Part shown: piece after piece, positions 249-49,861 of the stretch
How the letters are laid out: every line of letters starts with the position of its first letter
How positions within the stretch are numbered: position 1 is the first letter of the stretch
From: a virus
Lineage: Duplodnaviria; Caudoviricetes
Strand: one strand, 5' to 3'
DNA length: 63,892 nt
IMG/VR virus record: IMGVR_UViG_3300033433_000002
Span: 1-63,892 of that record
The notes under the pieces: model-generated
What the model was told of the DNA's origin: nothing
Database searches by the model: none
The model's input: the letters and a program-made list of their open reading frames with translations, nothing else
Made by a program: the position numbers and the translations under genes

Positions 249-2015
249 TCAGAATGTGCCTCCACGAATGGTGACACCACTTTGCCTAACTCCAAGGGTC
301 AAGGTTGATTGAGCAGTTAAAGCATCGCTAATATTTCCCGCAGCATCCTTGCACCACGCATAACCTATCTTCAATCCATTGGTGGAAGCAAACGTAATGG
401 TTGATTGTGCCGAAGCTGCCCATCCCGATCCAGAACAGGTTCCCGAAGTAGGAGGTGTTGCAGAGGTATTCACACAATATCCCGTCACGCCCGTGGCATC
501 GGTGCAAGTGAAAGAGGATATAGTCACCGTTGCGGACAGCCCTGAATTGGTTGCAGGTAAAGTAAAAGCCGTAACTACTGGAGCAGTAACGTCCCCTTCA
601 ACGTCATATCCTGCCGTTCCTGCGGTAGAACTACAACTCCCTGTCAATCCGGTTAGTGGATGAGGGCAGGTATAAGCGGTATAAGTTGATCCATTCAACT
701 TCCCCTTCTTATTCACATCATCCCACCAATTTAGGCAGAAGGCTCCCCCATCTCCAACACAAGTATCATGGTTGATATAATCTCGCTTTGCCTGAAACAG
801 ATCATCACAACTGAAAGTTTCAGGAGCGCACACAGAAGCTTTACATGAATCCCAGCCAAAGGTCATATTAGCTGTTGCTCCACCACCCTGAATGTTATCC
901 CACTCAATCATAGGCCATTGAGTTATACCATTATCTCCTGTTGATCCTGGTTGTTGATAGCAACGGTATCCTGCATGATTCCCCGATCCTACGCATTGAT
1001 CTACTCCACCATCCCCTGCACATTGTCCTGTTGACCCACAAACAGGAGGGCTATTCACATCCGTAGCCGCACAAGCACGATAATACATAAGGTCATGCTT
1101 TGCCCCATAACTTGAATCTGCCCTGTTTCCCCAAATCAAGGCAGTTCCAGACCTTGCATGAAAAACAGGGTAATAACTTCCATTGGTAAAGTTGTTGCGA
1201 TAGACCTCCACGCTATGGGCAGCCGAGGATGAATCATATCCATGCCAACCAACTCCACTCCCCTTTACCTCATTATACCTGAATACCATTCTCACACCGG
1301 CCTTAGCGTCCATTACTCCATCGGCAAATCCTCCCTCTCCGTGATCGAAAGTGCAACCCTCAATATAAGTAGCATTAGCTGTTCCGAATTGAGGGTTTCC
1401 GTTCCAATAAGCATAACTCCCTTCTACATTCCCCCAAGGTGTTATATCCTGTCCTGTGCCTGTTGGATTATAAAAATAGCATCCGGTTACAACTCCTCCC
1501 CCCTGAGTGGCATCCCCGCCACTGCCAAAAATTACCGCCCTTCCTGTGGATTTACCAGACATATCAAAATAGATGTTTTTGATTATCTTTTTGAGAGACG
1601 TTCCCCTAATTGAGATTGTGGCTGTAACCCCTGTGGACATAATTAATCTCATATCCTTTATGGTCAGAGATATGGTCCCATCAGCCCTCACGTTGTTAAA
1701 CATGGCATCAGCCATTAAACCCGTAATCGCCGTATATGTTCCGCTTGGGCTCGTCCCCGTACCTCCTGTTCCTGCACCCTGAATAATAATGTCATGGGAG
1801 AAATTAGTTGAAGCCAATGCGGTAGTCCATGTTGATGTTCCTGCTGGAATCTGTACCGTTCCTCCTGCCGCAGCGTCAGCGGCGTTAATACAGGATTGGA
1901 CCTCTGCCACACTCACATCAACAGCCGTGTAGACAGTCCCGACTGGAACAGGACAAGCAGCCCATAGCATAGAAGGGATAAGTAAAAATATTAAAATTAT
2001 TATTTTATTGCACAT
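249..2015 (-). CDS. Signal-peptide-bearing, Cys-rich pectin-lyase-like beta-helix protein (tailspike/depolymerase-like)
   Basis: Likely start MCNKIIILIFLLIPSMLWA; VQIPAGT and IIIQGAG are typical beta-helix entry motifs; VFRYNEV and VEVYRNNF; many Cys. Confidence 0.6.
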   Translation of the reverse strand: MCNKIIILIFLLIPSMLWAACPVPVGTVYTAVDVSVAEVQSCINAADAAAGGTVQIPAGTSTWTTALASTNFSHDIIIQGAGTGGTGTSPSGTYTAITGLMADAMFNNVRADGTISLTIKDMRLIMSTGVTATISIRGTSLKKIIKNIYFDMSGKSTGRAVIFGSGGDATQGGGVVTGCYFYNPTGTGQDITPWGNVEGSYAYWNGNPQFGTANATYIEGCTFDHGEGGFADGVMDAKAGVRMVFRYNEVKGSGVGWHGYDSSSAAHSVEVYRNNFTNGSYYPVFHARSGTALIWGNRADSSYGAKHDLMYYRACAATDVNSPPVCGSTGQCAGDGGVDQCVGSGNHAGYRCYQQPGSTGDNGITQWPMIEWDNIQGGGATANMTFGWDSCKASVCAPETFSCDDLFQAKRDYINHDTCVGDGGAFCLNWWDDVNKKGKLNGSTYTAYTCPHPLTGLTGSCSSTAGTAGYDVEGDVTAPVVTAFTLPATNSGLSATVTISSFTCTDATGVTGYCVNTSATPPTSGTCSGSGWAASAQSTITFASTNGLKIGYAWCKDAAGNISDALTAQSTLTLGVRQSGVTIRGGTF

Positions 2016-2709
2016 AAGCCGCCACCGCCGGACAATTTGCCGAACCACCATCCCCTCCAAACGTCGAATATGATGCCGGAAAGTTAGCATAGACCGAGGT
2101 TCCCCTTGTAGGTTGTACTGGATCAACGATAAGATAATAGGTGTATAGATTATCACTTGGTATGTAAGCAATCATATAATCCCCAGAAGATACAACATAG
2201 GGAGTGCTAAGAGTACATTCTAACCATGTATTTGCAAGCCACGGACCTGCCGTACAAGATTCGCTTAATATTGCTCCGTTTAGTGCTTGAACATATAGGG
2301 CTAATTTCCCATAATAAGCCCCAGCCTCTCCAGATTTTATCCTAAATTTAGTAAGTGTCCCACCAACTGGGATATTAATGTTTGCTGAAAAAATAGTAGT
2401 AGTTCCAAATGCAAAGGTATAACCAGTCCACGTTGGTTCCACCGTTGGAGTAGCAGTACACGCATAGTACCAAGCGTTAGGACCACTAGCCGCCGCCACC
2501 CCTCCCCCCACCACGGTCAGATTCATGGTCTGTTGCATCTGAATAGGCTCATCTATTCCATTAGAGATACACCCCTGTTCACATTCAGGCCAGGAGGATT
2601 TGCCACAGTCGGTGTAGCCTGGGATGCAGAAGTCCTGGGCGAAGAGGAGAGAAACACAAATCATTAATCCAAGAATAAATAGTGCTATTCCTAAGATAAA
2701 AGTTTTCAT
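2005..2709 (-). CDS. Secreted protein, probable beta-sandwich (DUF4082-like C-terminus)
   Basis: Signal MKTFILGIALFILGLMICVSLLFA; Cys-rich N-terminus; GGTLTKFRIK..KLALY..WLECTLSTPYVV. Confidence 0.5.
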   Translation of the reverse strand: MKTFILGIALFILGLMICVSLLFAQDFCIPGYTDCGKSSWPECEQGCISNGIDEPIQMQQTMNLTVVGGGVAAASGPNAWYYACTATPTVEPTWTGYTFAFGTTTIFSANINIPVGGTLTKFRIKSGEAGAYYGKLALYVQALNGAILSESCTAGPWLANTWLECTLSTPYVVSSGDYMIAYIPSDNLYTYYLIVDPVQPTRGTSVYANFPASYSTFGGDGGSANCPAVAAYVQ

Positions 2710-3098
2710 GGTTTTATCAACCTCTTTCCATCGGTTTTGTAGCCCTTCTCCTTCAAGATCATTCCGAGAGGGATTAGAGTAGCTTCCGTCCGTTCCATCG
2801 TAGCAGCCTGATGAGCGTAATAATAAGCACTATTTAAATCTCCTATAGAGAAGTAGGCTATTCCTAAATGCTGGTAAGGGATGTAGTCTTTCCCACCTAT
2901 CTCGATAGATTTCAAATCCTCTACGATAGCTTCCTCAAATCTTTCTTCCATAATCAATTCATATCCAAGGTTCGTGTGAGGGCGTTCTTTGTTCGGAGAC
3001 TTTGAAACCGTATCTTTCAAGAGCGATACCCCAGAACCCCACACCCTATTTCTCTCATATGTTCCTATTCCAAAGGCTAGGATGATTAGAGCATACAT
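2706..3098 (-). CDS. Membrane-anchored TPR protein resembling the C-terminus of TMTC-like proteins
   Basis: One TM, then TYERNRVW..SLLKDTVSKSPNKERPHTNLG and TPR helices; start uncertain (3098-3164). Confidence 0.6.
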   Translation of the reverse strand: MYALIILAFGIGTYERNRVWGSGVSLLKDTVSKSPNKERPHTNLGYELIMEERFEEAIVEDLKSIEIGGKDYIPYQHLGIAYFSIGDLNSAYYYAHQAATMERTEATLIPLGMILKEKGYKTDGKRLIKP

Positions 3099-3105
3099 TA
3101 TAATA

Positions 3106-4773
3106 TCAGGGGACAGTAAACGTGCCATCTTTCCCATAGACCGTCCAGACATTGTTTTCACCACTTCCTACAACACAAACCCTTGCTCCCTTGGTTCCGT
3201 CTGAGGTAATCGTTCCTGCCGCACTTCCCTCGGTAGCCTTATCCCTAAAGTAGTCAGACCCTGCCGCTGCTAACTGGATGGTGTAGGTTCCCCTTGCAAT
3301 AGCACATAGACTTAAACCCGTAACCTTCGCAGGAAGGGTAAGAACTCCAAGCCGTATAATCTCAACGATTCCCCCTCTTGCAATCCTATCGCTCGTTCCA
3401 TCACAACTCACCCCAATCGTGCAAGTTCCGGTAGCAAGGGCAAGCACTTTTATCTTTGCACTTACACTTCCTGAAGTCACTAAATTTAGAGCCTGAGTGT
3501 CAACGTCCAATTCTGATATATCTATTGCCTTAACCCCATTTCTAAATAGTTTAAGGTTAGTCCCCTCTCCCGCCATACCATATGAGGATGGAGGGATTGT
3601 ATAGGTTGAGTTTGGTGTCATAGTTAAAGCCCTTTGCCCATCCACAGCCGTCGAGGTGTACCCACCTGCCGAAACTGTCCCTCCTATAGTCACATTTCCA
3701 CTAACATCTATTCTCATTCTTTCTTGGGTAACGTGTGAAGCATCTGCAACATTAAAGGCTAAGAATGAATTTGCACCCCCACTTCCAAAACCCGCACTAA
3801 TCCTTGCCATGCTTCCAAGAACGTATTTAAAATTGATTCCTAATATCGTCCCTGCCGCAGCACTCGTATCGGTTAGGGCAATCATATCTACATCAGATGT
3901 AAGAGCATTTCCGATGTCAAGATTAGCTGCGGGTGAAACATTCCAAATTCCCACATATCCCGTTGTTGGAGCAAGAGTTAAACGTGGAAGTAAAGGACTT
4001 CCAGTTCCAGCTATTGCGACCCCTAAAGATAACCTCCCCGCTGAGTTTTCAATGTAACTTTGCGCTCTGGCTGTATTTGTTAGAGTAGGAGTAGCTAATG
4101 TGCCTCCAAGGGTTCCGTCAAAAATTATATATTCTTTAAACACTCCCCCGGCACTTTTTATAACTGATAAATCCGTGTTTCCACCTCCAGCCGGTGTTCC
4201 CCCTCTGTAATAAAGTTGAGCGGTATCAGCAACCAAAGCCGGATCATTAAAAAAACCGCCACTTTTATAAACTCCTCCCAAAATTCCGCCCGTACTTTGT
4301 CTCCATAGTTGAGCATAAGTAGGAGCACTCGCAGGGTCTATACTTACGGAGAACTGGGAGTTTAATGCCGCCGGACTTCCTGCTATTCCAATATCAACCA
4401 ATCCCCCCGTGGCTACCCTCATTACATCTTTACCAGCTACATAGTCATAAATAGGTGCAAATTCTACCCCTCCAGTGTCCATTCCCGTTGTCCATAAAGG
4501 AGTTGCCCCATCATTCCAAACCAATCCCCAAGGTGATCCGGTCCCCCCTGTGCGTTTCATCGTAGTCCATGAACCGCTCATAATGGTCTGGAAATTCGTT
4601 GTGGTTACGGTTGCTCCTGCATTGAAGGTTAACGCCCCCGTGAACACCAAAGGATTCACCGTGACGGGGGAGGTAAAGGTGGAGGAGGAGGAGCCTGGAG
4701 GTGTGGGAGGGAAGGCGTAAGCAGTAGCCCCGATCAGAATAAACGCAATGATGAACGCAAGTAGTCTTTTCAT
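3106..4773 (-). CDS. Tail-fibre-like protein with N-terminal signal peptide
   Basis: MKRLLAFIIAFILIGATAYA; fibre repeats TTGYVGIWNVSPAANLDI and ERMRIDVSGNVTIG. Confidence 0.6.
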   Translation of the reverse strand: MKRLLAFIIAFILIGATAYAFPPTPPGSSSSTFTSPVTVNPLVFTGALTFNAGATVTTTNFQTIMSGSWTTMKRTGGTGSPWGLVWNDGATPLWTTGMDTGGVEFAPIYDYVAGKDVMRVATGGLVDIGIAGSPAALNSQFSVSIDPASAPTYAQLWRQSTGGILGGVYKSGGFFNDPALVADTAQLYYRGGTPAGGGNTDLSVIKSAGGVFKEYIIFDGTLGGTLATPTLTNTARAQSYIENSAGRLSLGVAIAGTGSPLLPRLTLAPTTGYVGIWNVSPAANLDIGNALTSDVDMIALTDTSAAAGTILGINFKYVLGSMARISAGFGSGGANSFLAFNVADASHVTQERMRIDVSGNVTIGGTVSAGGYTSTAVDGQRALTMTPNSTYTIPPSSYGMAGEGTNLKLFRNGVKAIDISELDVDTQALNLVTSGSVSAKIKVLALATGTCTIGVSCDGTSDRIARGGIVEIIRLGVLTLPAKVTGLSLCAIARGTYTIQLAAAGSDYFRDKATEGSAAGTITSDGTKGARVCVVGSGENNVWTVYGKDGTFTVP

Positions 4774-4782
4774 CTTCTCACC

Positions 4783-5289
4783 TCATTTAACGAATGTAAG
4801 TTCGACGGTTACGACGGCGCTATCCACACTGTTCCCGGTGATTGCCAAGGTCAATGGTCCTACGGTGGGTGAAAAGCCACCACTGGCAGGGAAGGCGAAG
4901 GTCTTCACCCCGACCGTGGTGCTGTTGCTGATTGCCGAGGCTCCCTTTGTTCCCATGAGATCGAACCCAGAAGCATCTTTAATGGTGTACGAACTTGAAT
5001 TTGTGATTTGTGTCGCACCGGAGAGCGTTTCGACGGAGTAAAGATACCATCCCCACAAGAGTTTCGATGCAGTAGCGGTCCCACTTATAACCGTCGAGGG
5101 GAATGTATGAGCTGACACATCAGCGGTGCAGGTGTAGGTCACAACATAGACCCCCGCATCCTTCTGCCCCGTGGAAAACGAAGTGTCATGGATAAAAGAT
5201 GGGCCTGACGCGGTACAGGTGCCCACGGCAAAGGCGTTTGAAGCAAGCGCCAACCAGAGAAGCATGAGAAGAAGAAGTAACCGTTTCAT
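4783..5289 (-). CDS. Signal-peptide-bearing beta-rich protein (putative virion appendage)
   Basis: MKRLLLLLMLLWLALASNAFA; GGAGG RBS; two Cys. Confidence 0.55.
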   Translation of the reverse strand: MKRLLLLLMLLWLALASNAFAVGTCTASGPSFIHDTSFSTGQKDAGVYVVTYTCTADVSAHTFPSTVISGTATASKLLWGWYLYSVETLSGATQITNSSSYTIKDASGFDLMGTKGASAISNSTTVGVKTFAFPASGGFSPTVGPLTLAITGNSVDSAVVTVELTFVK

Positions 5290-5311: not shown

Positions 5312-8300
5312 TTATCTCAAACTGTTTTCCTTGTAGATTCTCCGTTGTTCGCTAAACGATTGATTTACTAGCGGTTTCGATTCTCTCAGGGTTTCCTTGT
5401 AAAACTTCGTCGCCTGATCCAATCGTTTCCGCTGGTCCTCATCGAGAGATTGTTTGAATTTGTGCTTGTCCTTCCCTGAAAGCCCCGAGAGGGGATCCAT
5501 TCTCTTTAGGGATTCTTTGATGTCGCTTTTCTTGCCTCCGAGAGAGATGTATTCCAGCATATACTTGTCGAGGGCTTCCCTGTCTTCGTATCGCAAAGAA
5601 AGTTTAATGTTATAGAGGGCGTTCGCTTTAGGGGTGAGCCAGAACCCTTCCGAGGCCTTACCCTGTTTCTCCAGCCATCTTCTCTTGTCCTCCATGACGT
5701 CAGAGTATGCGGCCTGTCCGGGGTCTACGGAATAGACCAGAAAGTTCTTCAGGCTTTCCTCGTATCCCCGGGATGGGAGGCCAGCGACGGCCGTGTACTC
5801 GTTTTCCAGTCCTAGACTCCTGGCCAGATACAACCCCGTATTTCTTATAGGCTGAGGCTTGAAGATGTCTGGGAAGAGTGACCGTCCCGTAATCAACTCG
5901 GCAGGGGTCTTAATAAATGGAGTGACTCCTTGAACTACGAGATTCACCGGAGACTTTACCATATTCTCGGAAATTTCTTTCAGGGTCATCTCTCCCTTGA
6001 AATATTTGTCAACGTACTTGGGTGCTTCTCCGAGTCCGAACCAATCCAGGAAGTCCCCGAGTGCGCCGATCCGATTAAAATAGATGATCTTTCCGTCTTT
6101 GTCTCTCCCTAGAATGATATGGGGTTGTGACTTCTGATCTTCCGAGAGTTCTTCTTCCTCGTCAGGGAATCGGGTATGGTTCCAGACCTGCAAGGCTGAC
6201 CAGAACGCCGTGGCCATGATCAAGAATTTGCCTACCCTGAAGGCCATGAATGGGGTTTTCGCTAGGGTCCCGAGTGCTGCCCTGCCAACCGTCTGAGAGA
6301 ATTGACCGTCACTCGCAGCGTTCTTGGCAAATTGCACATACCTTCTGAAGTTGACCTCTTTCCAAGACCAAAACGGAAACACATATTTTCTCAAGGCATT
6401 ACCCATCACGGAAACCCTGTCATACGCTCCCAGAAGATCATTAGAAAGCCAGTAAGCCCGGTCCCTGATGTCTGAGAGTCCCATGATTTCTTCAGGCTTT
6501 GAACCTCCGAAGTTCTTAGGTTTACCCTCAGGGTTCTTTTTCATCTGATCCAGGTAATTTAGATAGTTCGCATACCTGAGAAGGGCTTCCCGGGCATCTG
6601 TGGCTATTCGTGCCGTTTCCCAATACTTCTTCCATACTCCCTTGGGAATGTCTTTGACTCCCGGATGTTGGTCTCGGTAAAGACGCTCAAATACCCACAG
6701 GTCCTTCAATTCCCCCATTTCCTGAGCCTGAAGGTTCGCGCTGAATCCCCCCCGATCAAAGAACTGCTTCAACTCTCCGGTGATCTCTTTCTTACCAAAG
6801 AGGGTGGCACCTATCTCCCTAGTGGCCCTTGGAGCATCGGAAAATCCTCGAGGATTTCCAACAAAAGCGGCATCGGCGTCACCCGTCATGTTCCGGATGT
6901 TATATTTGAGCATCCTTCTCGGAGAGATAAGCTGCCAAACCTTCCAGCCTTTCAAGAGAGCTCGGTCTGCGTTTCCGATAACCGAATCAGACCTTCCCTT
7001 TGAAAGCTCATCCAGGGTGGCGATAATCTCATCTTTAAGAACAAACTGTTTCCTCTTCCCTCCCATAGTGAGGGCCCTTCGAATATCCTCCTTCGACACT
7101 CCGAGTTCTTCCAGGGCACCGGTATGGAGTTGTTCGGCCAGTTGAGCCGGGATGGAATCGGCCATGTAAAAGATATTTCCTTCTCTCGGCTGCCAGGTGT
7201 TATATCCCTCCGGGATTATGGTTTCCCATGTCTGGAAAGCATCGGCGGCCTTTAGTGCCTCTTCGATATATTTCTTCTTGCCAGAAATACCCTTAAATAT
7301 GAGTGCCGCGGCCTGCCCTTCTGGGGTCTCTGGGTAGTTCTTCAACAGCCAGGCAAGATAAGGAAGGGTTCCCTCGTGGCTTCCACCAGAAGCGATCGAG
7401 TCAATGACCTCTGACCATTTCTGAGAAGGGAGATCCGGGAGACTTCCATCCTCCGCAAACCTCTGGAGTTTCTTGAATCCCATGGCCTGCTTCAAGTTGA
7501 GGGTTCGCCTGTAAAGGGATTGGGCAAGGTCCTCGACGGTCATCTCCTTGCCTTCGGCGTTCTCCATCCCGGGGTGCCATGCTGCTTGTGCCATGGGACG
7601 GAAAACCATGTCCATGATAGCGGTGTTGTTCATTCCCTTCGCCCGGGCCTTCAGGTCGGACATGATGTTGTAATTCTCATCAACGTTCTTGATTGTCTTG
7701 GCAACCTGGATGTCGTAGAGCATTTGGGAAACGACTTCGTATTCCGGCTGAATGAAGTCCCGGTTGATGTCGAGTTCCGAGCCTGCCCTTTTCTTTAAGA
7801 ATCCCCTTCCAGTAGGGGTCTTTAGTTTCTTTCCGGTCCCGAACAGGCCCTTCAGGTTGACGTATTCAAGGATCTGATGTCTGAAGTAGTTTTCGTTTTT
7901 CAGCCTGTCATCCACATCAAACCCTATATCCTTCATGGTACCAGTGTATTCAGTCTTGATCGTGTCCCACATCTGCTTTCGTTTATCGAGGGCTGCCTTA
8001 ATCTCCGGTCTCTGATCGATCAAGGCATTGATCCGGTCCAGTTCTGGGCCAACAGTATCCTTTGTCAATCCCCAAGGCAGGTCATGGCCCTTCTCGACTT
8101 CCCTCGCGAGGTCATCTAGGATCACCTTTCTGGTAAATAGGTCGTAATTCTCACCCTTCAGCCCCGATAGGACTTTCGCCAGGGTCACAATGGCGTCATA
8201 GGAAGCAACCCCTTTTTGCTTGGCCAACTTATTCAGGTCGAATTGAAGTTGCGAAAACTCCTTGTTCCTCGGAAGGTTCTCGTACTGCCGCGTCATCTTG

Positions 8301-11300
8301 TGCCAGATGTCGGTAAAATACTCTCCAACCTGAGAAAGAATGGGTTCTCCCTTGGGTAGGGATTCCTGGTAGGACTTCTCGACGGCTGGATCTGCAAACT
8401 CGAATGCGGGGCGCTCTGGGGATGAGGGACGGCCAAAGACAACCCTGCCGGCTGATTTTTCCCCTGCCCTCGCCTTTCGAAGTGCTTCTAGGTCACTGTG
8501 GCCATGTGCGACAATATCCTCTGCAGACCTTTCTGGTGGGGTCGCCCTTATAATCGGGTTGTTATCAAGAAGTTTTCCTATGGCCTCAACCCCTTTTTCA
8601 GAGTTCGGAATAAAATACCTAGTTTCCCAATTAACCCTCTCCTGTTCCACCCCATAGGACTTGATAAGGGATGCTTCCCCGTAAGAAGGTCCCTTTATTT
8701 CAACCCGTTCCTCTCCCTGCACCTTTCTCCTTATGATCGTCCACCCATTCGCAAGTTGAACCGTATAGGAATGGTGAAAGACGTTATTTATGACTTCTTG
8801 CGGTGTCATCTTTACGGCTGTTGTTTCTGCTCCGAGCCTTTCCCTTACACTTGACACCAACGTTGGAGGGATGATCCTCCCGAGCATCCTCTCTCCTTTA
8901 TCGGTCTGTAACCTGACAACCCGGGCATGGCCCTCGGGAAGCCGGTTATAGATGGGAAGTAAGGCTCCAGTCACAAGGTATTGCCGGTCCTTTACCTCTT
9001 TTGGAGTGACTTCGTACTCCTTCTGCCAAAGATCCTTGGCTTGTGCCTTGGTCAGTTTGACATATTTCTCGGGGTCGTTTATGTCCTCCGATTCAAGGTT
9101 GTGGACCCCATAGTTCATTCCGGTTGCGGTATAAGCCGTGGTGACATCTCCGGTCCTGGCGTTCGTCTTTGATTTTGCCTCAGAGAGAGCCCACACCCTT
9201 CCGCTTTTTATGTTTTGAACATATCCACCCTTTGAGAATCTGTCTGACTTCTCCCACGGGATGATATGGGCGTCCCGGGTCAAGTCGAGTTCCACGAATT
9301 TTGTCTTGGCGCCGGTCCTCGGATCGGTATAGACTACCTGTTCGCTAATCTTCTCAATCTTGTTTGCCCTCACGGTTTCGAGGCCTGCGTCAAGGGTTCC
9401 ATTCTGAATCGCCTTGGCTATCTCTAGGTCTAACTTCTCGGAGAAGAGGTCAAATACCTTATCCTGCATATCAATCTTCATTGAGAGGATACGATTCAAG
9501 AACTGTGGAACTTCTGGAATGGCCGTTACGTTCAAATTCCCAGTCCGGTCATCAATCAGGTTTATCCCGAGCTGGTCCGAAAACTCTCTCAGCGTCATGT
9601 CTGGGACGTTCCCGCGCGAAACATCTTCAACGAGAGCATCCAAGGCGTCATTCGCATACTGGCTTTCAAGGTTGTCACGCTCAGAGAATAAACCCTGTCC
9701 TCCGGTCTGACGCTGACCTTTCGTTAAAGCCCCGAGTTGGTCGAGCCTTCTGGCGATCGACGAAATGAACCGCTTTTGTCCCTTCAGGTCCGTGGTCACA
9801 AGGAAATACTCGGGAGGTTGAGCCTGGTTTGTTCTATGAGTTCGGCCCAACCCTTGAACCGCCCTATCTGCCCTCCAGCCTGGTTGAACCAGGTAGTGCA
9901 TCCTCGGGCTCTGATTCTTCGCGGTAAGGTCGGCGTGGTAACTCCGTCCTGTCCCTCCTGCGTAGGTGAAGGCAAGGATTTGCTTCTTGTTATTCATAAA
10001 GGCATCGGCATCATTCATCGCCTTCGCCTTCGATCTCTTGTCTACTATCCGGTGGGTTCCTTTTTCGTCGGTGACTTCGATAACCCTTCGTGTCCTTCCG
10101 GAAACCTCAGCAACCTTGTCTACCCCGAAATGGTTGATGATCATATCCAGCGGATTGTCCGGGACCTTGATGCTTCCAAGCCTATCAAGAAGGGCATCAC
10201 GCATGGCTACGGCTTCAGCGTTTTGGACGGGATTACCATTCGAATCTACCGTAAGTTCAGATTTTATATTTCCATCTGCATCCATAACCTCATGGTATTC
10301 GTTCACTGGAAAACTGTGTTGTATAAACTGCATCAGTTGTTCCCGGGGGGTGAGATCAAGGTCTTCAAGGGTGTCTTCCTCTTCCATCTTGGAAAGCGCC
10401 CTGTTTGTCGCCGCTTCGTTCGTATTGACGAGCTGAAGAACAACGGAATTTCCCTTACCCAAATCTGTCTCAATATTCTTTACCACGGTAGGCATCTGCA
10501 TAGCCGTGATGATCTGGTTGAAGAACCTTTGATGATTTCCCCAAAAAGCTGACATGGCGGCTGATTTTGCCTGTCCATTAAGGGTTTGTGGTCTTCCCGT
10601 CTGTGGGTTTGGTGATGTAACCCCTGTTGCTTCGAGGGCTGCGTTAATGTTCTGGAGGACGATTTGCCATGCCCCTGCCAGCTCGTCGTAGACTTCCCGC
10701 TGCGCCGGGGTCAAGGTATGTTCCATCCGGGAGTATTTCACCCCATCATAGGAAAGCGACCGAGCCGTATATTTTCCCATGGCCTTCAGGTTGCTGGCCA
10801 CCATTTCGAGATTTGCCATGCCGCCGCCACTGATCTTATTGATAAAGTCGTTCACATCTGCGAAGGCTGCCCCCTGGCCCCACAATCCGAGGCGTCTCGC
10901 ATAAGCGAAGTTCATTACCTCTGTGGCTCCGGTTGCAGAGACATAGACTATCCTTGCGTTCGGGAGAGCGTTTTGAAGTGCTATCCCAGAGAGAGCTTTT
11001 GCTGAGGCCTTCTTCCTTCCCCTGGTTCCCTGCGTTTCGATGGCGTTACCCATATTGTGAGATTCATCGAAAGCGATAACTCCGTCGTAGTCCTTCCCAA
11101 ACCAGTCAATGAGCTGATTTAGGCGCGACACTTCAGGGGCAGCGGGTTGTCCTGGTTCCGTAACCTGTTTCTTTTTCCATCGAAGAAGGTCATATCCGAC
11201 AAAGGCAATTCCTTCTTTGTTCTTTACCTGAGATCCAGCCTTGATCTTCCCGAAGTCGAAAACGACATCTGGGTTAAATCCAGTCCCCTTGACATCCCTC

Positions 11301-14300
11301 TTGGCGTCCTCAATCAAAGGAGAGTTCTGGCTTAACCAGATCCCTTTCTTGCGTCCTTGTCTCCAGTTGTCAAAGAAGATCCCGGCAATCTCGCGGCCCT
11401 TGCCTACTCCGGTCCCGTCACCGATGAAATAGCCCTGTCTTACTGCCTTCGAGACCGAATCATCTGTGACGTTTCTTGCCTCTACCGGATTTCCTTCTTT
11501 GTCAAACCATTGTGTTCCGGGAAGAAATTCCGAATGGGCCTGCCCTGCATAAATGATCGATTCGAGTTGGACGTTACTGAGCTTTCCAGATTCAATGACG
11601 TTGGCGGGAAGGTTAGGACTATACTTTGCGTCAGGTGGATCGACACTCGACATGGCCGCGCTTTCAACGATCGGCCCGGGATGGGGTTTCGATCCCTTGA
11701 CTATGGCTTTTTTTGGCTTGTAGTTTTCGTAGAGAGAATCGGTAAGATCGGTAGGGTTCTCTTCTTCCTTGGTCTGTTCGAGGGTTACGGTAGACTTTTC
11801 ACGCTCGGATAATCCTTCAGGAGAAGGTTTAGTTTCGAGTCCAGGGCGTCCAGGAGTTCCCACGACAGGTCCTCCGGCTCCTTGAATCGGTTCGGGTTGT
11901 TCACTAGCGGGTACTGCTCCCCGTCCTCCGACGTTCTCAACCACCGGTACGCCTTTATTTGGTTCGCCCCGAGAAGTTCCTCCAGGTTGGCCCTTAACCG
12001 GCTGTCCCTTGCCCGGAGTTTCCCGCTGTCCAGGCCCCACAACATAAGTTGAAGGCAATACAGTTGGCTCGGGTCCGGAGGCACCTTCAACTCTTGCAGG
12101 AACTTTTTGCACTTCTTGTTCAGGTTGTCTTGGTTCGGCAGCGATTCGGGCATCTCTTACCTCCTGCAACAGAGGGATCGCGTCCTTAACGTCCTCGACG
12201 GTCCCGGTAACAGTTGGCTTCCCCGTGGGTGGGGTTTTATCGATAACCAAAATCCGATTATCGTAATTCGTTCCGTACTTGGCATATCCTTTGCCTCCTA
12301 CCACTATGTTAGCAGAAAGGTTGTATTTGTCAACAATATTCTTTAGCCAGTCGGTGACGGCCTTCGGATCGGCAAACCATCCCTTTCCGATCAAGGCCAC
12401 CATCCGGCCACCATCCTCTAATCTCTTGAAGGCCTGATCAAGATGAGTAACGACATTTGCGGACTTCCGCTGTCCCTGAATCCTTCCAGCCGTCGAAGAG
12501 AATGGGGGGTTCATCAAGACCACCGTTGGCTTGACATCTTTCGGGAGAATGTTGTTGATCTGCTCGGCGTTCTCGGTGAAGACCTGATCGAATCCCATCT
12601 GTTTAAGAAGGTCTGCGCGGCGCGGGGATAGTTCGTTTACGATGGTCTTGGCACCTGCGACCTTGGCGAATGAGGCAATTCCCCCAATCCCTGCGCTCGG
12701 TTCTAAAACGGTATCTTTCGGGGTGATGTTCCCGGTCCATGCCATTGTATAGGCCAGGTCTGGAGGGGTCGAAAACTGTTGAAATTCATCCATCTCAGGG
12801 GTACGGATACCGGACTGAGAGGGGATTTTCTCCATGATTTCTTGACGAATGGCGTCAATACTTAATCTTGCCTGTTGGGGAAGATCTACCGTAGGATCAA
12901 ACTGCTTCCCACGATCAACGATATACTGATTTATCCCCATCTCCATCGCGTCAAAGGCGTCTTTGGCATTGTATTTGCCTTCGCTGATGGTACCCCCGTA
13001 GGCTTCTGCAGCCTTTTGCATGAGTTCGGCCTTTTCGAAGGGTGTCCCTAAAGTAAGGCGGTCTTTGACCCAGGAGGCGACGGTAGAAGATGGGGTTTGT
13101 TTTATTTCTTCTGGAGGTGTGACCTTCTCCCAATCACTCTCCTTAAAGTGCATATTCCCGGTTTCATTCGTCTTGATCCATCGGCTTCCATCGGGATTTG
13201 TTCGGATATGCTGCACTCTTTGAGATTTACCAGAGGCAAACCCAATTCCACTATCCTTCTTTGGTTTAACGTAATCGCCTATTTCTAATCGCCCCGGTTT
13301 CTCCCCAACCAAGTGCCCCTCTTCCCCCTCGGGCTGCACAACGATACCTTGGCGGGTCGGGATGATTTTGGCCTTGTCGGGTTTCTTTGTTTCTCCAATA
13401 CCCTCTATGGTAGGTTGCCCCTCCTCCTCAGCCTTCTTCGCTGCTTCCATCAACGGAGATCCTTCAAGCGTAGGTTCGCCTTTAATGCCCTCTTTTGGCA
13501 TTTCAAGACCGACCTTCATGCCGGGGAGAAGTGTTTCACCTTTTTTTGTGGGGGACGGTGCTGGCTTTAATTCAGGAGTGGCTTCTGGTGCCGCGGCTTC
13601 TTCTCGTTCTTCGAGGTCAAACCATTCGTGGAGTTCCTCTTCTGCAAGGTCTTCAGGTGGAGCTTCATTCTTGTAAGCTGTCTCAGCCGATCCAACTTCT
13701 CTTTCAATGAGGTGTTCGGGGACGCCATCGGCTTCCAAGTCCTTTCTCAGATCCATTATCTCATTATCAATGGTGTCTGTCAATGAATTTATTGTGTCGC
13801 TCTGGAGAAAGTGGGGATCCTGCTCCATTTGGGCCTTGATATGGGCTTCTTCGGCCTTTCGGATAGCCTCATTGGTGATAGGTGCCCCTTTCTTTCCTCC
13901 AAAGATGGAGTCGGTGATCATCTGCGCCAGGTCGTCGGTTGTCGTACCTTTCGGGAGGTCCCCTTCGGCCTCTCCCATCTGAGCCAAAACGTCAAGGTAT
14001 TGACCGTCTTTTCGAACCAACCCGACCGGACCTTTCCCTCCAGCCCTGCCCCACGCCTCGATGTCGGCTGAGGGGTCGGTGGAATTTATACCGCCTTTTG
14101 ACTTGATCCAGGCGATTACGTTTAGCGGCTTTTCTAAGACCGGGGTTTCTTTTTGTCGCTTCGGTTTGGCAACCCCTGTTTGTCCCGGGAGATCGCTTCT
14201 GCTTGGCTGTATGCCTTTTGTAGATTCTCCGGATGGGATGTCCCGATCGTACCACTTTCCTTGTAACGGTTTACCAGTTCCTTTATGTTGTTCGACAGCA

Positions 14301-16384
14301 CCCTCTTCCCTCTTCCCGGTGTCAACGGCATTGGTGGCCTCCTTTTTAAAGTGCTTTTCAAAAAAGGTTTTCAAATCAGGATTAACCTTTTCGGGACTTG
14401 TCAAATAATCCCCGTAATCCATAGCAAGATGTTCCCTGATGAAGTTTATGTGCATATCATCAGGGGCCCTCATCAACTTTGAGTATTCTTCCAGGAGGGG
14501 ACTGTCTGAAAGTTTCTGAATATCCCCTAATTTATCTTCTATTTGAACGTGCCCAATTTCGTGATTTACTATCGCGGGATCTTTAGCGTCGGCCTCGCTC
14601 TCAAAGACGAGCCGTTTGTCCTTCCAGTCAACCTCTGCCTGCCATCCAGGGGTTTTCCTCCAATTCGGTTGAATAGCCGTCGTCCATCCTTCGGGGATAG
14701 ATAGTGGCTCTTTACCCTTCCCCTGCGCCTCCACCGGGGCTATTTCAGGCTTTTCTGGAGGGGTGGCTGTCTCACCCTTGGCCTCTACCTTTTGGGGGGC
14801 TTGTGGGGCTTCTGGAGGGACAAACATATCCCCGACCCGGGTGTACCCTTCTGGTAAACGATGTTTCAAACCCTGGTCATCAACAGCCCTTGCGTTAACG
14901 GCCTTGCCTTCCCTGAGTGCCCCCAACACTTCAACGTCGTTGGCGTTCCCGAGTCCTGCGGTCTTGTATTCATTAGGAGTCATCTCCCACGGTTCTTTTA
15001 CCCCACCACCCTGAACGGGTTGTAGAACCTCTTCGGGCGGGGCTTCGGGGGTTGGTAGGGCTTCGGGGGGGACTTCGGCTTTTGCTTCTTCAACGGGGGG
15101 CACCTTTGGCTTTGCGGCTTCAACCTTCTTCTCCTGCTCGGCAATCTTCTTGTCGATCTCGGTAGGTTCCGTCTTGACGGCCTTCTCCCTGATTGCCGCT
15201 TTCTCTTCAGGGGTGATCTCGGGGAGGGGTTCTTCCATACCCTTCAAGGTCCGGACGCCGGGGGTGGCTTGGGTAACTCCCTCGCCCTTTTCCCTCAGCC
15301 TGATCTCCTGTTCCTTCAGGGTCTTATTCAGCCTTGCCAGTTCCCCGGTCGTGTATCCAAGGTTCTTGATCTCGGCCTCGGTAAGAATCTGACCACTGAT
15401 TTCCATCTCCTTAATGAAGAGGTCGGCATCCTTCGGGGTGTAGGATTCGGCCGCGGTCGGGTATTTTGCCTTCAACTCCTCACTTCTGGCCTTAAAATCA
15501 TTCTTTACTGAGGCCCGTTGTGCCTGCGCCCTGGCCGAGAGTTCTTCGGCAGATTGAAGAACAAGGCCTCGCTCTTTATTGGTCAACCCCCTGAACCACT
15601 CCCCAACCTTCCCAAAGACACCCCTTCCGACTTCCCCAAAGAGGGCACCGTAGGCAATCAGTCCCGCCGCTTCCATGGCGGTATCCTGGTTGACTTCCTT
15701 TATCCCTGCCAACTGCTCGTAAAATGGGACTTGGGACTCACCGAATCGCTCAATAGCTGACTTCGGGTCTGCCCACAGGGAAGGTTCCCCGGTCTTTAAA
15801 ACCTCGCCCTTCTGCTTCAACTGTTCGCGTTTGGCAAGGGTTCTCTGGGCAAGTCCCATCTCGGGGCTGACGAATCCGCCGGGGGTGTAACCCTCCATTG
15901 TCTTGGCGGCTTTGGTCAGGGGTCCCTCGGGGACCTGTGGCGTCAATTCCCTGGTAGGTGAAGGCGCCACTCCTGCCGGTCCCCCCATCATGGCGGTAGG
16001 TCCGAGTTGAGATTCATCGAAGGCGGAAGGGGGTTCGGTGGGTGCCGGTGCCGGAGTCTGTGGCCCCGTCGCATACTCACCCTTGGAGAATCTCCCAAGG
16101 TTGAATTCTTCCCTGACCTGTTGCAAAACCTCGGCGTCTGGCATACCCTGTTTGATAAGTTCATCCATCCTGGCCGTGACTTCCGACTCCATCTCCTTGG
16201 GCATGGAAATATCGACGGTCCCAGGAGGCGCCGGAACCTCGGGCTTGACGGTCAGTTCGCGGGTGGGTTTATCCGGTTCGGCACCTTCTTCATACCACTT
16301 CCTCGGCTTTCCAAAGACAGCAGTTTTAGCCCTCTGGTAAAGGGAAGGTTTCTCTTCGGCGGTATTTTCGTCGTACCACGCCAT
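5312..16384 (-). CDS. 3690-aa DarB-like large polyvalent internal virion protein: HExxH domain, amino-methyltransferase, strawberry-notch SF2 helicase, helical C-terminus
   Basis: NHEIGH; LEPSAGIGG and MNPPF; GDGTGVGKGR, FDESH, YVSATGA, QGLGRTHRTNQ; follows the ejection genes. Confidence 0.85.
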   Translation of the reverse strand: MAWYDENTAEEKPSLYQRAKTAVFGKPRKWYEEGAEPDKPTRELTVKPEVPAPPGTVDISMPKEMESEVTARMDELIKQGMPDAEVLQQVREEFNLGRFSKGEYATGPQTPAPAPTEPPSAFDESQLGPTAMMGGPAGVAPSPTRELTPQVPEGPLTKAAKTMEGYTPGGFVSPEMGLAQRTLAKREQLKQKGEVLKTGEPSLWADPKSAIERFGESQVPFYEQLAGIKEVNQDTAMEAAGLIAYGALFGEVGRGVFGKVGEWFRGLTNKERGLVLQSAEELSARAQAQRASVKNDFKARSEELKAKYPTAAESYTPKDADLFIKEMEISGQILTEAEIKNLGYTTGELARLNKTLKEQEIRLREKGEGVTQATPGVRTLKGMEEPLPEITPEEKAAIREKAVKTEPTEIDKKIAEQEKKVEAAKPKVPPVEEAKAEVPPEALPTPEAPPEEVLQPVQGGGVKEPWEMTPNEYKTAGLGNANDVEVLGALREGKAVNARAVDDQGLKHRLPEGYTRVGDMFVPPEAPQAPQKVEAKGETATPPEKPEIAPVEAQGKGKEPLSIPEGWTTAIQPNWRKTPGWQAEVDWKDKRLVFESEADAKDPAIVNHEIGHVQIEDKLGDIQKLSDSPLLEEYSKLMRAPDDMHINFIREHLAMDYGDYLTSPEKVNPDLKTFFEKHFKKEATNAVDTGKREEGAVEQHKGTGKPLQGKWYDRDIPSGESTKGIQPSRSDLPGQTGVAKPKRQKETPVLEKPLNVIAWIKSKGGINSTDPSADIEAWGRAGGKGPVGLVRKDGQYLDVLAQMGEAEGDLPKGTTTDDLAQMITDSIFGGKKGAPITNEAIRKAEEAHIKAQMEQDPHFLQSDTINSLTDTIDNEIMDLRKDLEADGVPEHLIEREVGSAETAYKNEAPPEDLAEEELHEWFDLEEREEAAAPEATPELKPAPSPTKKGETLLPGMKVGLEMPKEGIKGEPTLEGSPLMEAAKKAEEEGQPTIEGIGETKKPDKAKIIPTRQGIVVQPEGEEGHLVGEKPGRLEIGDYVKPKKDSGIGFASGKSQRVQHIRTNPDGSRWIKTNETGNMHFKESDWEKVTPPEEIKQTPSSTVASWVKDRLTLGTPFEKAELMQKAAEAYGGTISEGKYNAKDAFDAMEMGINQYIVDRGKQFDPTVDLPQQARLSIDAIRQEIMEKIPSQSGIRTPEMDEFQQFSTPPDLAYTMAWTGNITPKDTVLEPSAGIGGIASFAKVAGAKTIVNELSPRRADLLKQMGFDQVFTENAEQINNILPKDVKPTVVLMNPPFSSTAGRIQGQRKSANVVTHLDQAFKRLEDGGRMVALIGKGWFADPKAVTDWLKNIVDKYNLSANIVVGGKGYAKYGTNYDNRILVIDKTPPTGKPTVTGTVEDVKDAIPLLQEVRDARIAAEPRQPEQEVQKVPARVEGASGPEPTVLPSTYVVGPGQRETPGKGQPVKGQPGGTSRGEPNKGVPVVENVGGRGAVPASEQPEPIQGAGGPVVGTPGRPGLETKPSPEGLSEREKSTVTLEQTKEEENPTDLTDSLYENYKPKKAIVKGSKPHPGPIVESAAMSSVDPPDAKYSPNLPANVIESGKLSNVQLESIIYAGQAHSEFLPGTQWFDKEGNPVEARNVTDDSVSKAVRQGYFIGDGTGVGKGREIAGIFFDNWRQGRKKGIWLSQNSPLIEDAKRDVKGTGFNPDVVFDFGKIKAGSQVKNKEGIAFVGYDLLRWKKKQVTEPGQPAAPEVSRLNQLIDWFGKDYDGVIAFDESHNMGNAIETQGTRGRKKASAKALSGIALQNALPNARIVYVSATGATEVMNFAYARRLGLWGQGAAFADVNDFINKISGGGMANLEMVASNLKAMGKYTARSLSYDGVKYSRMEHTLTPAQREVYDELAGAWQIVLQNINAALEATGVTSPNPQTGRPQTLNGQAKSAAMSAFWGNHQRFFNQIITAMQMPTVVKNIETDLGKGNSVVLQLVNTNEAATNRALSKMEEEDTLEDLDLTPREQLMQFIQHSFPVNEYHEVMDADGNIKSELTVDSNGNPVQNAEAVAMRDALLDRLGSIKVPDNPLDMIINHFGVDKVAEVSGRTRRVIEVTDEKGTHRIVDKRSKAKAMNDADAFMNNKKQILAFTYAGGTGRSYHADLTAKNQSPRMHYLVQPGWRADRAVQGLGRTHRTNQAQPPEYFLVTTDLKGQKRFISSIARRLDQLGALTKGQRQTGGQGLFSERDNLESQYANDALDALVEDVSRGNVPDMTLREFSDQLGINLIDDRTGNLNVTAIPEVPQFLNRILSMKIDMQDKVFDLFSEKLDLEIAKAIQNGTLDAGLETVRANKIEKISEQVVYTDPRTGAKTKFVELDLTRDAHIIPWEKSDRFSKGGYVQNIKSGRVWALSEAKSKTNARTGDVTTAYTATGMNYGVHNLESEDINDPEKYVKLTKAQAKDLWQKEYEVTPKEVKDRQYLVTGALLPIYNRLPEGHARVVRLQTDKGERMLGRIIPPTLVSSVRERLGAETTAVKMTPQEVINNVFHHSYTVQLANGWTIIRRKVQGEERVEIKGPSYGEASLIKSYGVEQERVNWETRYFIPNSEKGVEAIGKLLDNNPIIRATPPERSAEDIVAHGHSDLEALRKARAGEKSAGRVVFGRPSSPERPAFEFADPAVEKSYQESLPKGEPILSQVGEYFTDIWHKMTRQYENLPRNKEFSQLQFDLNKLAKQKGVASYDAIVTLAKVLSGLKGENYDLFTRKVILDDLAREVEKGHDLPWGLTKDTVGPELDRINALIDQRPEIKAALDKRKQMWDTIKTEYTGTMKDIGFDVDDRLKNENYFRHQILEYVNLKGLFGTGKKLKTPTGRGFLKKRAGSELDINRDFIQPEYEVVSQMLYDIQVAKTIKNVDENYNIMSDLKARAKGMNNTAIMDMVFRPMAQAAWHPGMENAEGKEMTVEDLAQSLYRRTLNLKQAMGFKKLQRFAEDGSLPDLPSQKWSEVIDSIASGGSHEGTLPYLAWLLKNYPETPEGQAAALIFKGISGKKKYIEEALKAADAFQTWETIIPEGYNTWQPREGNIFYMADSIPAQLAEQLHTGALEELGVSKEDIRRALTMGGKRKQFVLKDEIIATLDELSKGRSDSVIGNADRALLKGWKVWQLISPRRMLKYNIRNMTGDADAAFVGNPRGFSDAPRATREIGATLFGKKEITGELKQFFDRGGFSANLQAQEMGELKDLWVFERLYRDQHPGVKDIPKGVWKKYWETARIATDAREALLRYANYLNYLDQMKKNPEGKPKNFGGSKPEEIMGLSDIRDRAYWLSNDLLGAYDRVSVMGNALRKYVFPFWSWKEVNFRRYVQFAKNAASDGQFSQTVGRAALGTLAKTPFMAFRVGKFLIMATAFWSALQVWNHTRFPDEEEELSEDQKSQPHIILGRDKDGKIIYFNRIGALGDFLDWFGLGEAPKYVDKYFKGEMTLKEISENMVKSPVNLVVQGVTPFIKTPAELITGRSLFPDIFKPQPIRNTGLYLARSLGLENEYTAVAGLPSRGYEESLKNFLVYSVDPGQAAYSDVMEDKRRWLEKQGKASEGFWLTPKANALYNIKLSLRYEDREALDKYMLEYISLGGKKSDIKESLKRMDPLSGLSGKDKHKFKQSLDEDQRKRLDQATKFYKETLRESKPLVNQSFSEQRRIYKENSLR

Positions 16385-18393: not shown

Positions 18394-18403
18394 AAGATCC
18401 CCC

Positions 18404-18435
18404 TTGACAAAACATAATTTTATTAGTAGTATAAT
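18404..18435 (+). promoter_or_regulatory. Sigma70-type promoter of the HNH gene, antisense to the late operon
   Basis: TTGACA 18404-09, 17 bp, TAGTAT (overlapping TATAAT 18430-35); AGGAGG before ATG 18455. Confidence 0.7.
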
Positions 18436-18454
18436 AAAAAAGGAGGTTTCTGGA

Positions 18455-20684: not shown

Positions 20685-21129
20685 GGTGATCCCCCTTCAT
20701 ATACCTGAATATCTTTTTATCCCCGTTCTGAGGAGCCTGTTTGAATCCCAATGTTTCAAACCACTTCCTTGGTTTTCCATTCCCGTAGGCTGATAGGGCC
20801 TCGATACAACCCCCATCCTTTATGATGGTGTCTGAAATCTCCCTGAGAAACTTCGTCATACCCACGGAGATCAACCCGAGCTTTCCTTCGGCATCGGCAA
20901 AGTAAACCCTCCACATTTTCGGACCCAACGGAGTCATGATAAGGACGGCGCAGGGTTCGCCATCATTCGAGCATAAACTTACCGCCCATGGTTTATGAAC
21001 CATGTTTACGAATCCCTCTCTCATTTCGTGAAACGAAAGGCCAAAGGCTTCAACGCTTTCCAGTGATATTGAGGAAAGGTTTTTAAAAACCTGATCGATC
21101 GATTCTTGCGTCAAGGGTCCTATTCTCAT
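20668..21129 (-). CDS. GNAT-fold acetyltransferase-like virion assembly protein (T7 gp13-like position)
   Basis: C-terminal N..RKWFETLGF motif; start MRIGPL. Confidence 0.6.
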   Translation of the reverse strand: MRIGPLTQESIDQVFKNLSSISLESVEAFGLSFHEMREGFVNMVHKPWAVSLCSNDGEPCAVLIMTPLGPKMWRVYFADAEGKLGLISVGMTKFLREISDTIIKDGGCIEALSAYGNGKPRKWFETLGFKQAPQNGDKKIFRYMKGDHHGIRR

Positions 21130-49763: not shown

Positions 49764-49861
49764 ACTGGATCTTCTTTGGAATTGGCGTGTTCGTTGGCAG
49801 CTTTATCACCTTAATTGTAGTGGCAATCATAATTGACGGAAAAGAGAGGAGGTTCACATGA
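49760..49861 (+). CDS. 33-aa membrane peptide
   Basis: [25 protein letters not shown]; ATGA overlaps at both ends. Confidence 0.6.

Follow-up and report, generated by a model that had tools for sequence, protein, structure and literature searches.

Sec-type leaders on fiber-slot proteins of an uncultured short-tailed phage point to a possible export route for outer appendages

According to the textbook account, tailed phages are assembled wholly in the cytoplasm. Why, then, would a phage encode proteins with export leaders at the position where receptor-binding fibers are expected? The question is raised by IMG/VR virus record IMGVR_UViG_3300033433_000002, all 63,892 bases of which were analyzed (hereafter, the window). 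The window is the whole record and has a 127-nucleotide (nt) terminal repeat, i.e., it is a circular assembly; it is the complete 63.9-kb genome of a short-tailed phage, which is temperate given the presence of an integrase gene. Five minus-strand genes, denoted g1 to g5 (Table 1), are located between the gene for a giant protein of 3690 amino acids (aa) and the next gene (start 232), so that the gene order is giant protein, g1 to g5, and a lysis cassette running over the circular junction. Four of the five, along with a separate pair of genes, p624 and p84, encode proteins with predicted Sec leaders. The sequence features described below make a good case for the export of this module and its folding outside the cytoplasm; that the exported fiber-type proteins join the particle, after the holin has merged the two compartments, is a tentative proposal to which we assign a probability of roughly 45%.

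The sequence-only reading of this DNA had described signal peptides on four of the five genes at the fiber position and a transmembrane anchor on the fifth, and the N-termini are as described there. In g1, g2, g4, g5, p624, and p84, an n-region with K/R residues precedes a hydrophobic core free of charges, and the residues at -3 and -1 are small, for a total leader length of 19 to 24 residues, so that, by heuristic and inspection of the translations, all six have the sequence characteristics of a Sec/signal peptidase I leader (h-region of about 10 to 20 residues). This includes p624 and p84, which the same reading had pointed to as an exported pair at 26 to 28 kb. The leader-bearing starts are preceded by Shine-Dalgarno sequences (GGAGG for g1 and p624, GAGGTGA for g2, and AGGAGG for p84); for g3, a weak one was found at each of three candidate starts (3128-3164), leaving its start uncertain. 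The 640-aa open reading frame (ORF) listed for g5, from the first TTG, is over-long, the leader-bearing start being at 2015. Among 79 greedily called ORFs, a crude hydrophobic-leader heuristic was positive for 12; g4, overlapping the over-long reading of g5, was not among the ORFs called. A lipobox with Cys at +1 is absent from all five genes, g5 having its Cys at +2 behind an AXA-type site. Successive intergenic distances across the module are 22, 9, -23 to -59, -4, -11, and 16 nt (negative values denote overlaps), and consensus scans revealed no excess of promoter-like sites (11 versus 9.4 expected), no terminator-like site on the minus strand of the module, and a single one on the plus strand. 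Given the short gaps and overlaps, the lack of promoter excess, and the absence of an own-strand terminator, the module reads as the end of a late operon.

The assignment of this position to receptor binding, after the giant protein and before lysis, was part of the same sequence-only reading and is borne out by comparison with relatives. The lineage is marked by the C-terminal ~650 aa of the giant protein, the only part common to the 1133- to 4156-aa proteins of the relatives. Leaderless fiber-like genes fill the same slot in L008/G004 and L023, which share this C-terminal domain, and in Methanosarcina virus MetMV (MK170447). In the closest complete relative, G001 (62 kb), which has the same layout, all six proteins encoded between the giant gene and the M15-type endolysin gene (311, 134, 421, 285, 569, and 98 aa) have leaders. 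The first of these carries, right behind the leader, an Mtd_N domain (Pfam E 1e-13), the N-terminal domain of a classic receptor-binding protein, and no further fiber gene is visible in the structural block of G001. In G005, both slot proteins have leaders, namely, a g1 homologue (34% identical) and a 655-aa protein that resembles g2 in the first ~55 residues only. In the survey of related phages for conserved leaders proposed at the outset, the closest relatives retain them, with 6 of 6 and 2 of 2 slot proteins in these two genomes. With g1 and the slot conserved in G005 and MetMV, g1 to g5 are not an insertion relative to the relatives and, judged by gene order, occupy the receptor-binding or fiber slot of the lineage.

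Within the g1 family, the leader is an add-on that, as reconstructed from the sequences, was acquired or lost at least four to five times. The nearest Atlas clusters of g1 are 88 to 100% viral (Uroviricota) and have an immunoglobulin (Ig)-like sandwich fold, which is a lead only; a g1 profile searched against PDB sequences yielded nothing below E 0.35. Among GenBank phages, the sole match is a 141-aa leaderless protein of the metagenome-assembled MetMV (36% identical), encoded directly after a 3002-aa giant protein and directly before a leaderless 522-aa fiber-like protein (MK170447 2879-13962), the same order as in this phage. Leaders were found in 8 of 10 database homologues of g1 and are missing from the other 2, and the alignment shows that the leaderless proteins start, after Met, precisely at the residue that follows the predicted cleavage site. 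A scan of IMG/VR produced 29 loci, 10 with a leader, 18 without, and 1 without an ORF, the classes being assigned by eye, with the heuristic overridden for L048 (over-long ORF start) and L069 (a hydrophobic strand, false positive). In a tree of 30 non-redundant rows (17 with leader and 13 without), built with the leader columns removed, no fewer than 5 changes of the leader label are required, 4 or more of them on well-supported branches, compared with a mean of 10.1 for shuffled labels, and only 1 of 500 shuffles was equally low. The tree comes from a quick search and has several long branches; it omits duplicates (L052, L056, L057, L060, L061, L063-65, and L073), a locus without an ORF (L066), near-copies (P0066 and P0073), the truncated L028, G035 (a near-copy of the G074 prophage-like contig), and L002/L027 (the same contigs as L050/L047). 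The family is also present in 2 of 401 Desulfobacterota genomes, where it is leaderless and encoded, on prophage-like contigs, by genes with the capsid gene on one side and adaptor/nozzle genes on the other. The coexistence of leader and leaderless forms within one family, together with their siting in structural blocks, marks g1 as a phage structural-block protein with an add-on leader. The sequence-only reading held that it would be undermined if homologues generally lacked signal peptides; leaderless homologues do exist, but they belong to the same families as leader-bearing ones and occur alongside them. Runs of three successive leader-bearing proteins opening with a g1-family gene were also observed in other IMG/VR phages (L049 3128-5934, L054 3875-7143, and L027 6001-8974), that in L049 shortly before a lysozyme-like gene and that in L027 between terminase-like and portal-like genes.

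The predicted architecture of g2 is of the fiber type. Behind the leader, a 'FPPTPP' N-terminus is followed by a shaft module (aa ~286-369) and a gp9/gp10-like sandwich (aa 439-553) with a conserved Cys pair. A word-indexed protein search with g2 returned its own record alone, and an exhaustive search was used instead, yielding 37 matches, all partial. The C-terminal ~130 residues recur, again C-terminally, in 14 aligned proteins of 140 to 553 aa, of which 10 of the 11 with a Met start have a leader or lipobox; the remaining three, with a Val start, are possibly truncated. Two Cys residues are invariant in this tip alignment, and both are replaced together in L025, an 877-aa leader-bearing fiber that, on a phage-like contig, has the portal and capsid genes for neighbors and is the only tip-family match in the 401 Desulfobacterota genomes. 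A scan of IMG/VR with a narrowed tip alignment gave 18 pattern matches, none of which was confirmed. The middle part of g2 is common to ordinary leaderless tail fibers (P0041, P0050, P0059, and others), and the leader with the following ~35 residues recurs in L002, L027, and P0031. The AlphaFold model of g2 is confident for aa ~300-365 and 445-555 only, with a predicted local distance difference test (pLDDT) score of at least 70 in 201 of 555 residues. In the model, aa 439-553 resemble phage virion proteins with Z 9.3 to 11.1 and a root-mean-square deviation of 2.2 to 2.7 Å over 85 to 96 residues, the matches being CBA120 TSP4 (aa 79-184), the Pa223 capsid spike, a Klebsiella phage baseplate chain, an Acinetobacter tailspike, and T4 gp9. 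The middle part matches the fiber shafts of T5 (pb1), Mu, and the mosaic adhesive trimers (MATs) of Bdellovibrio with Z 5.0 to 7.2, and aa 286-369 match T5 pb1 and MAT with Z 6.2 to 7.2, a range in which a common arrangement is possible. Neither Pfam nor PHROGs gave a match for g1, g2, g4, or g5, and no GenBank phage matched g5, g2, or p624.

The fiber-like protein p624 likewise appears to descend from particle proteins. Just past its leader, aa 35-87 match aa 14-68 of PDB 9vyg, a 'Tail spike protein' (E 6e-4), and the same region also matches, at 35% identity, aa 1-63 of a leaderless fiber of 403 aa in L004 (1351-2562), the gene for which sits after an adaptor-like gene. No match to p624 was found in five related records, and an N-anchor match of the p624 kind is absent for g2, g4, and g5. 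The g1, g2, and p624 families thus all hold leaderless members in addition to those with leaders.

Cysteine use is consistent with folding outside the cytoplasm. The mature proteins contain 2 (g1), 4 (g2), 8 (g4), 20 (g5), and 8 (p624) cysteines, all even numbers, the count for g5 in agreement with the earlier description of the beta-helix protein as Cys-rich. Together, these five have 42 Cys in 2060 residues (2.0%), compared with 29 in 8111 residues (0.36%) for eleven leaderless structural proteins; the giant, p669, and scaffold proteins have none. When g5 is aligned with 19 homologues, cysteines are gained and lost pairwise: 15 of the 20 rows have both C332 and C352, the other 5 have neither, and C419/C427 and C450/C461 largely co-occur. 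Both the parity and the density of the cysteines fit extracytoplasmic folding of the module proteins.

Not all module members are of phage particle type, and g5, in particular, looks like an enzyme captured from the host, whose own surface polymer it would act on. It consists of a predicted right-handed, parallel beta-helix resembling polysaccharide enzymes and a C-terminal Ig-like domain. The model is confident for aa 20-310, and among the Foldseek matches listed, nearly all are right-handed beta-helix enzymes or tailspikes (best E 1.6e-3, weak); the g5-family profile matches the beta-helix of the AlgE4 mannuronan epimerase (PDB 2pyg) with E 1.6e-5, so that the enzyme class is suggested by fold. 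Of 26 database matches, one was named MYXO-CTERM by its source. Hydrophobic leaders were recognized in 25 of 25 homologues, 20 by heuristic and 5 by eye. At E <= 1e-5, the family is present in 20 of the 401 Desulfobacterota genomes, and the two best cellular copies (2 of 2 loci inspected) lie inside Wzx/Wzy-type polysaccharide loci, next to genes for family 1 and 2 glycosyltransferases (GT1 and GT2), asparagine synthase, Wzy_C, GNAT, a deacetylase, and a Polysacc_synt_3 flippase. In g4, the leader is followed by a Cys-rich linker and a putative jelly-roll (aa ~75-234) similar to lectins and carbohydrate-binding modules (CBMs), its Atlas neighbors being DUF4082-like, lectin-like, and CBM-like (a lead only); g4 was absent from all 401 Desulfobacterota genomes searched. 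The match of g3 to the tetratricopeptide repeat (TPR) family TPR_1 (Pfam E 1.1e-3) is below the cut-off. The module, then, is mixed, with g1, g2, and p624 of phage particle type and g5 of the type of host secreted enzymes, as far as the sequences tell.

How might such proteins serve a phage? In the scheme that we tentatively favor, the module comprises late outer-appendage genes rerouted via the host Sec pathway, and assembly would be split between two compartments, with the head, tail, and ejection apparatus made in the cytoplasm and the disulfide-bonded fibers, lectins, and decoration-type proteins in the periplasm, the Sec leader being a switchable add-on. Late in infection, the module proteins would be exported unfolded and would then fold, gain disulfides, and oligomerize in the periplasm, possibly aided by the membrane-anchored TPR protein g3. 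Once the holin opens the inner membrane and the cytoplasm and periplasm merge, the finished fibers, the Ig-like protein, and the glycan-binding and glycan-cutting proteins would dock on completed particles. Such a change of compartment would be possible only for components that are added last and from outside, which would explain why leaders are found on fibers, lectins, and decoration-like proteins and never on portal, capsid, nozzle, or ejection proteins. Attachment is suggested by the position of the genes in the slot and in a late operon, by the descent of g1, g2, and p624 from phage particle proteins, by the mature N-terminus kept across leader switches, and by the lack of any other fiber gene in G001. 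Of the extracytoplasmic, disulfide-dependent appendage assembly originally envisaged, the exported character, the fitting cysteine use, and the virion fiber or spike domains of g2 and p624 stand, and a uniform appendage pathway does not, g5 being a host-type enzyme.

Several results weigh against this scheme. To our knowledge, no tailed phage adds periplasmic parts, and a literature search covering titles and abstract openings found none that does. Leaderless candidates for receptor binding exist in the window: p199, encoded after the nozzle gene, has an N-terminus conserved, by eye, with that of a 134-aa G001 protein and a variable C-terminal domain 40% identical over ~127 aa to p170, and the nozzle contains, at aa ~108-340, an insertion of ~230 aa that is absent from the G001 orthologue. 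The mature N-terminus of g5 is the same as that of its secreted cellular relatives, which argues that g5 lacks a particle-docking domain and may be a free enzyme. The p624 and p84 genes look like an insertion relative to G001, where the two genes that flank them adjoin each other. Of 19 loci that could be scored, 17 have the same leader status for the g1-like gene and the large gene that follows it (leaders on both in 7 and on neither in 10; 2 are mixed and 0 the reverse; raw Fisher p 7e-4), with the neighbor at L071 scored as a membrane protein (7/2/1/9 in the alternative scoring), but only 2 to 3 of the pairs are phylogenetically independent (sign test p >= 0.5), and given so few contrasts, the agreement is suggestive rather than established. 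The leader calls themselves, including the reclassification by eye of the genes downstream at L045 and L071, come from the heuristic and inspection. Finally, in the g1-family alignment, 8 of 11 proteins with a leader and 0 of 3 without one have a Cys pair, but the second Cys also occurs in two leaderless IMG/VR groups (L051/52 and L062-65), which makes this argument weak. As separate observations, the nozzle insertion resembles, by eye, a galactose-binding-like domain, and the p170 gene lies inside the lysis cassette, next to that for a DUF4434-like 332-aa protein.

Some of these results would be accommodated if the proteins were exported but never attached, forming instead a late 'inside-out' toolkit that acts on the envelope and surface polysaccharide of the dying cell. 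Here, g5 would cut or modify the Wzx/Wzy polymer, while g4, g1, g2, and p624 would bind the polymer or mask the receptor, so that the progeny could leave the slime layer and avoid re-adsorption to debris, as with a receptor-destroying enzyme. The location of both inspected cellular g5 relatives in polysaccharide biosynthesis loci (with Wzy_C, GT2, flippase, and deacetylase genes), the exported-type nature of all 25 g5 homologues, the missing docking domain, the adjoining lysis cassette, and the presence of p199 and the nozzle insertion are all in line with this possibility, which calls for no new assembly route. What it leaves unexplained is the leader/leaderless switching of g1 and of fiber shafts with the mature end kept, as well as the leader on the Mtd_N-type receptor-binding protein of G001, a phage whose structural block shows no other fiber gene; we consider it less probable than attachment but well worth keeping in view. 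A different fate for exported proteins, surface display as adhesins or lysogenic-conversion products that alter host adhesion, aggregation, or phage susceptibility during prophage residence, was the alternative raised in the sequence-only reading. An integrase is encoded, the g2 shaft resembles the MAT fibers (Z 6.2 to 7.2), which have signal peptides and are surface displayed (PMC10769870), and a further exported-type, collagen-like protein is encoded in the early region. This idea suits p624 and p84, an apparent insertion, better than g1 to g5, which lie in a late operon without promoter-like or terminator-like signals of their own; g1, moreover, retains its slot in sister phages, and the tip and g1 families, found in 1 and 2 of the 401 Desulfobacterota genomes, are on phage-like contigs in both cases. 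For the module as a whole, we regard lysogenic conversion as improbable.

The least probable reading is that the hydrophobic N-termini are not working export signals at all but mis-called starts, cytoplasmic-face tethers, or docking helices, with assembly proceeding in the cytoplasm as usual. It draws on the heuristic nature of the leader calls and on the source gene call for g2 (P0027, 458 aa), which starts at residue 98. However, that internal start has only a weak Shine-Dalgarno sequence, in contrast to the leader-bearing starts, the g2 leader and the ~35 residues behind it recur in three other proteins, the positive n-regions predict an N-in/C-out topology, cysteine parity and density fit export, and the leader is kept in 25 of 25 g5 relatives.

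Comparison with known systems helps to delineate what is peculiar to this module. The sister phages MetMV, L004, L008, and L023 (Desulfarculaceae-binned), and the GP4-type tail 8JOV, share with this phage the order giant protein, small g1-family protein, fiber, and lysis, the 36% identity of g1 to its MetMV counterpart, the 35% identity of the p624 N-domain to L004, and the nozzle and adaptor matches to 8jov (E 1e-32 and 4e-13, respectively). Whereas the appendage proteins of the sister phages begin at the mature sequence, those described here have a Sec leader of 19 to 24 residues ahead of it and more paired cysteines. Late proteins that use host export are well known among phages, including signal-peptide and signal-anchor-release (SAR) endolysins, spanin lipoproteins, and exclusion lipoproteins such as T5 Llp. 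These, too, are phage proteins passed through Sec for action at the envelope, but they are lysis or exclusion factors rather than proteins of fiber or receptor-binding type, and the five genes here lack a lipobox. The g5 protein shares the beta-helix with the AlgE4 A-module (2PYG) and, with its relatives in Desulfobacterota Wzx/Wzy clusters, the leader and N-terminal cap, a likeness by fold and profile; unlike secreted beta-helix enzymes, it is phage-encoded and has an extra C-terminal Ig-like domain and more cysteines. The MAT fibers of Bdellovibrio bacteriovorus (PMC10769870) are modular, phage-fiber-like proteins produced extracytoplasmically, with a signal peptide, variable C-terminal modules, and the shaft fold noted above. 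In contrast to the genes described here, in the fiber slot of a phage late operon, those for MATs are chromosomal predator genes, the products of which are displayed on the cell surface. MATs share a ~130-aa beta-rich N-domain directly behind the signal peptide, and the comparison with g2 covers the shaft only. Given the signal peptides and surface display of MATs, fibers of this kind can be made by an export route. In the particle map of phage A1002, fiber II (gp41) is seen without its first ~30 residues, which the authors ascribe to proteolysis (PMC13730344); this missing N-terminus may bear on the leader question.

The host is probably a diderm bacterium and possibly a member of Desulfobacterota. 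This assignment follows from the occurrence of the DNA in peat metagenomes and from the binning of relatives' contigs with metagenome-assembled genomes (MAGs), phage-contig binning being weak evidence: the C-terminal part of the giant protein matches 7 related IMG/VR loci and 3 contigs binned with a Syntrophales, a Desulfarculaceae, and a Hadarchaeota MAG. An archaeal host, as the MetMV label would imply, was dropped on the grounds that the window has genes for a lipobox protein, for a GT9-like protein, and for a protein resembling M15-type peptidases. The host of MetMV was predicted in silico only (PMC7164591), and its archaeal assignment may merit a re-check, as a syntrophic bacterium living alongside methanogens would yield an equal abundance correlation.

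Elsewhere in the window, genes are almost all on the minus strand, and family scans (Pfam and PHROGs) identify the head and tail genes listed in Table 1 as well as a scaffold-like protein. The giant protein contains AAA_34 (E 1.6e-110) and Helicase_C_4 (E 2.6e-86) domains and, in its 3690 aa, no cysteine. The lysis cassette encodes membrane proteins, the M15-type peptidase-like protein, and a lipobox protein. The portal and scaffold genes are separated by a run of sugar-modification genes, which includes those for a GT9 heptosyltransferase-like protein, two GT2-like proteins, two methyltransferases, a radical SAM/SPASM protein, a hexapeptide transferase, a PIG-L deacetylase, and an HNH endonuclease, and its products could act on particle proteins or host glycans. 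Sequons (NxS/T and D/ExNxS/T) are not enriched in the module, with p624 mildly high (15 versus about 10 expected), and no phage-encoded Dsb, signal peptidase, or oligosaccharyltransferase was detected among the ORFs scanned. Three HNH_3 endonuclease genes are present, one of them in the structural operon on the opposite strand, and a 121-nt direct repeat (82% identical) lies upstream of two early genes. The collagen-like protein of the early region has a leader, 15 Cys, collagen triple-helix repeats (Pfam E 3e-12), and a DUF1554 C-terminal domain, and is probably a moron-like exported-type protein encoded outside the late operon.

Table 1. Features of the window; positions are in nucleotides, leaders and functions are predicted
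Feature	Coordinates	Strand	Description
g5	249-2015	-	588 aa; leader MCNKIIILIFLLIPSMLWA, cleaved before AC
g4	2005-2709	-	234 aa; leader MKTFILGIALFILGLMICVSLLFA, cleaved before QD
g3	2706-3164	-	About 140-152 aa; one transmembrane helix; weak TPR match
g2	3106-4773	-	555 aa; leader MKRLLAFIIAFILIGATAYA, cleaved before FP
g1	4783-5289	-	168 aa; leader aa 1-21, MKRLLLLLMLLWLALASNAFA, cleaved before VG
Giant protein	5312-16384	-	3690 aa; virion/ejection type, with Strawberry-notch (Sbno)-type helicase domains
HNH_3 endonuclease gene	18242-19153	+	
p199	21126-21725	-	Leaderless receptor-binder candidate
Nozzle-like protein	21725-24052	-	Family scan
SU10-type adaptor	24055-24735		Family scan
p84	25837-26064	-	75 aa; leader MRTLITIGLILVLVLSVLA, cleaved before QE; partner of p624
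p624	26064-27926	-	620 aa; exported-type, fiber-like, with leader
Phage_capsid_3 major capsid protein	29277-30380		Family scan
Sugar-modification gene run	32121-39452	-	
HNH_3 endonuclease gene	33529-34089	-	
P22-type portal	39464-41719		Family scan
Large terminase	43244-44803		Family scan
Collagen-like protein	49858-50904	+	Early region
Direct repeat, 121 nt	52896-53016 / 54944-55064		
HNH_3 endonuclease gene	53011-53649	+	
Integrase	about 55.9-57.0 kb		
Lipobox protein	59121-59552		143 aa
p170	60847-61359	-	Shares a C-terminal domain with p199
M15-type peptidase-like endolysin candidate	62525-62842	-	Peptidase_M15_4 E 3.5e-3, below cut-off

If export of fiber-type proteins followed by attachment held for many uncultured phages, disulfides and further modifications of the envelope side could be present on their host-range proteins; such fibers would be missed by tools for host prediction and receptor-binding-protein annotation that discard leader-bearing proteins, their cytoplasmic expression for phage engineering would fail, and the timing of lysis would be part of the assembly pathway. 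Even on a more ordinary reading, a late, exported set of fiber-derived and glycan-active proteins represents a little-described phage answer to the host surface polysaccharide. The set occurs in a lineage of peat phages with a GP4-like tail and a giant protein of the Sbno type, relatives of which have been binned with Desulfobacterota, and the on/off switching of a leader can be traced here within one family. With sister proteins that have or lack the leader, the g1 family provides a concrete system for testing whether phage appendages may be routed through the envelope of the host.

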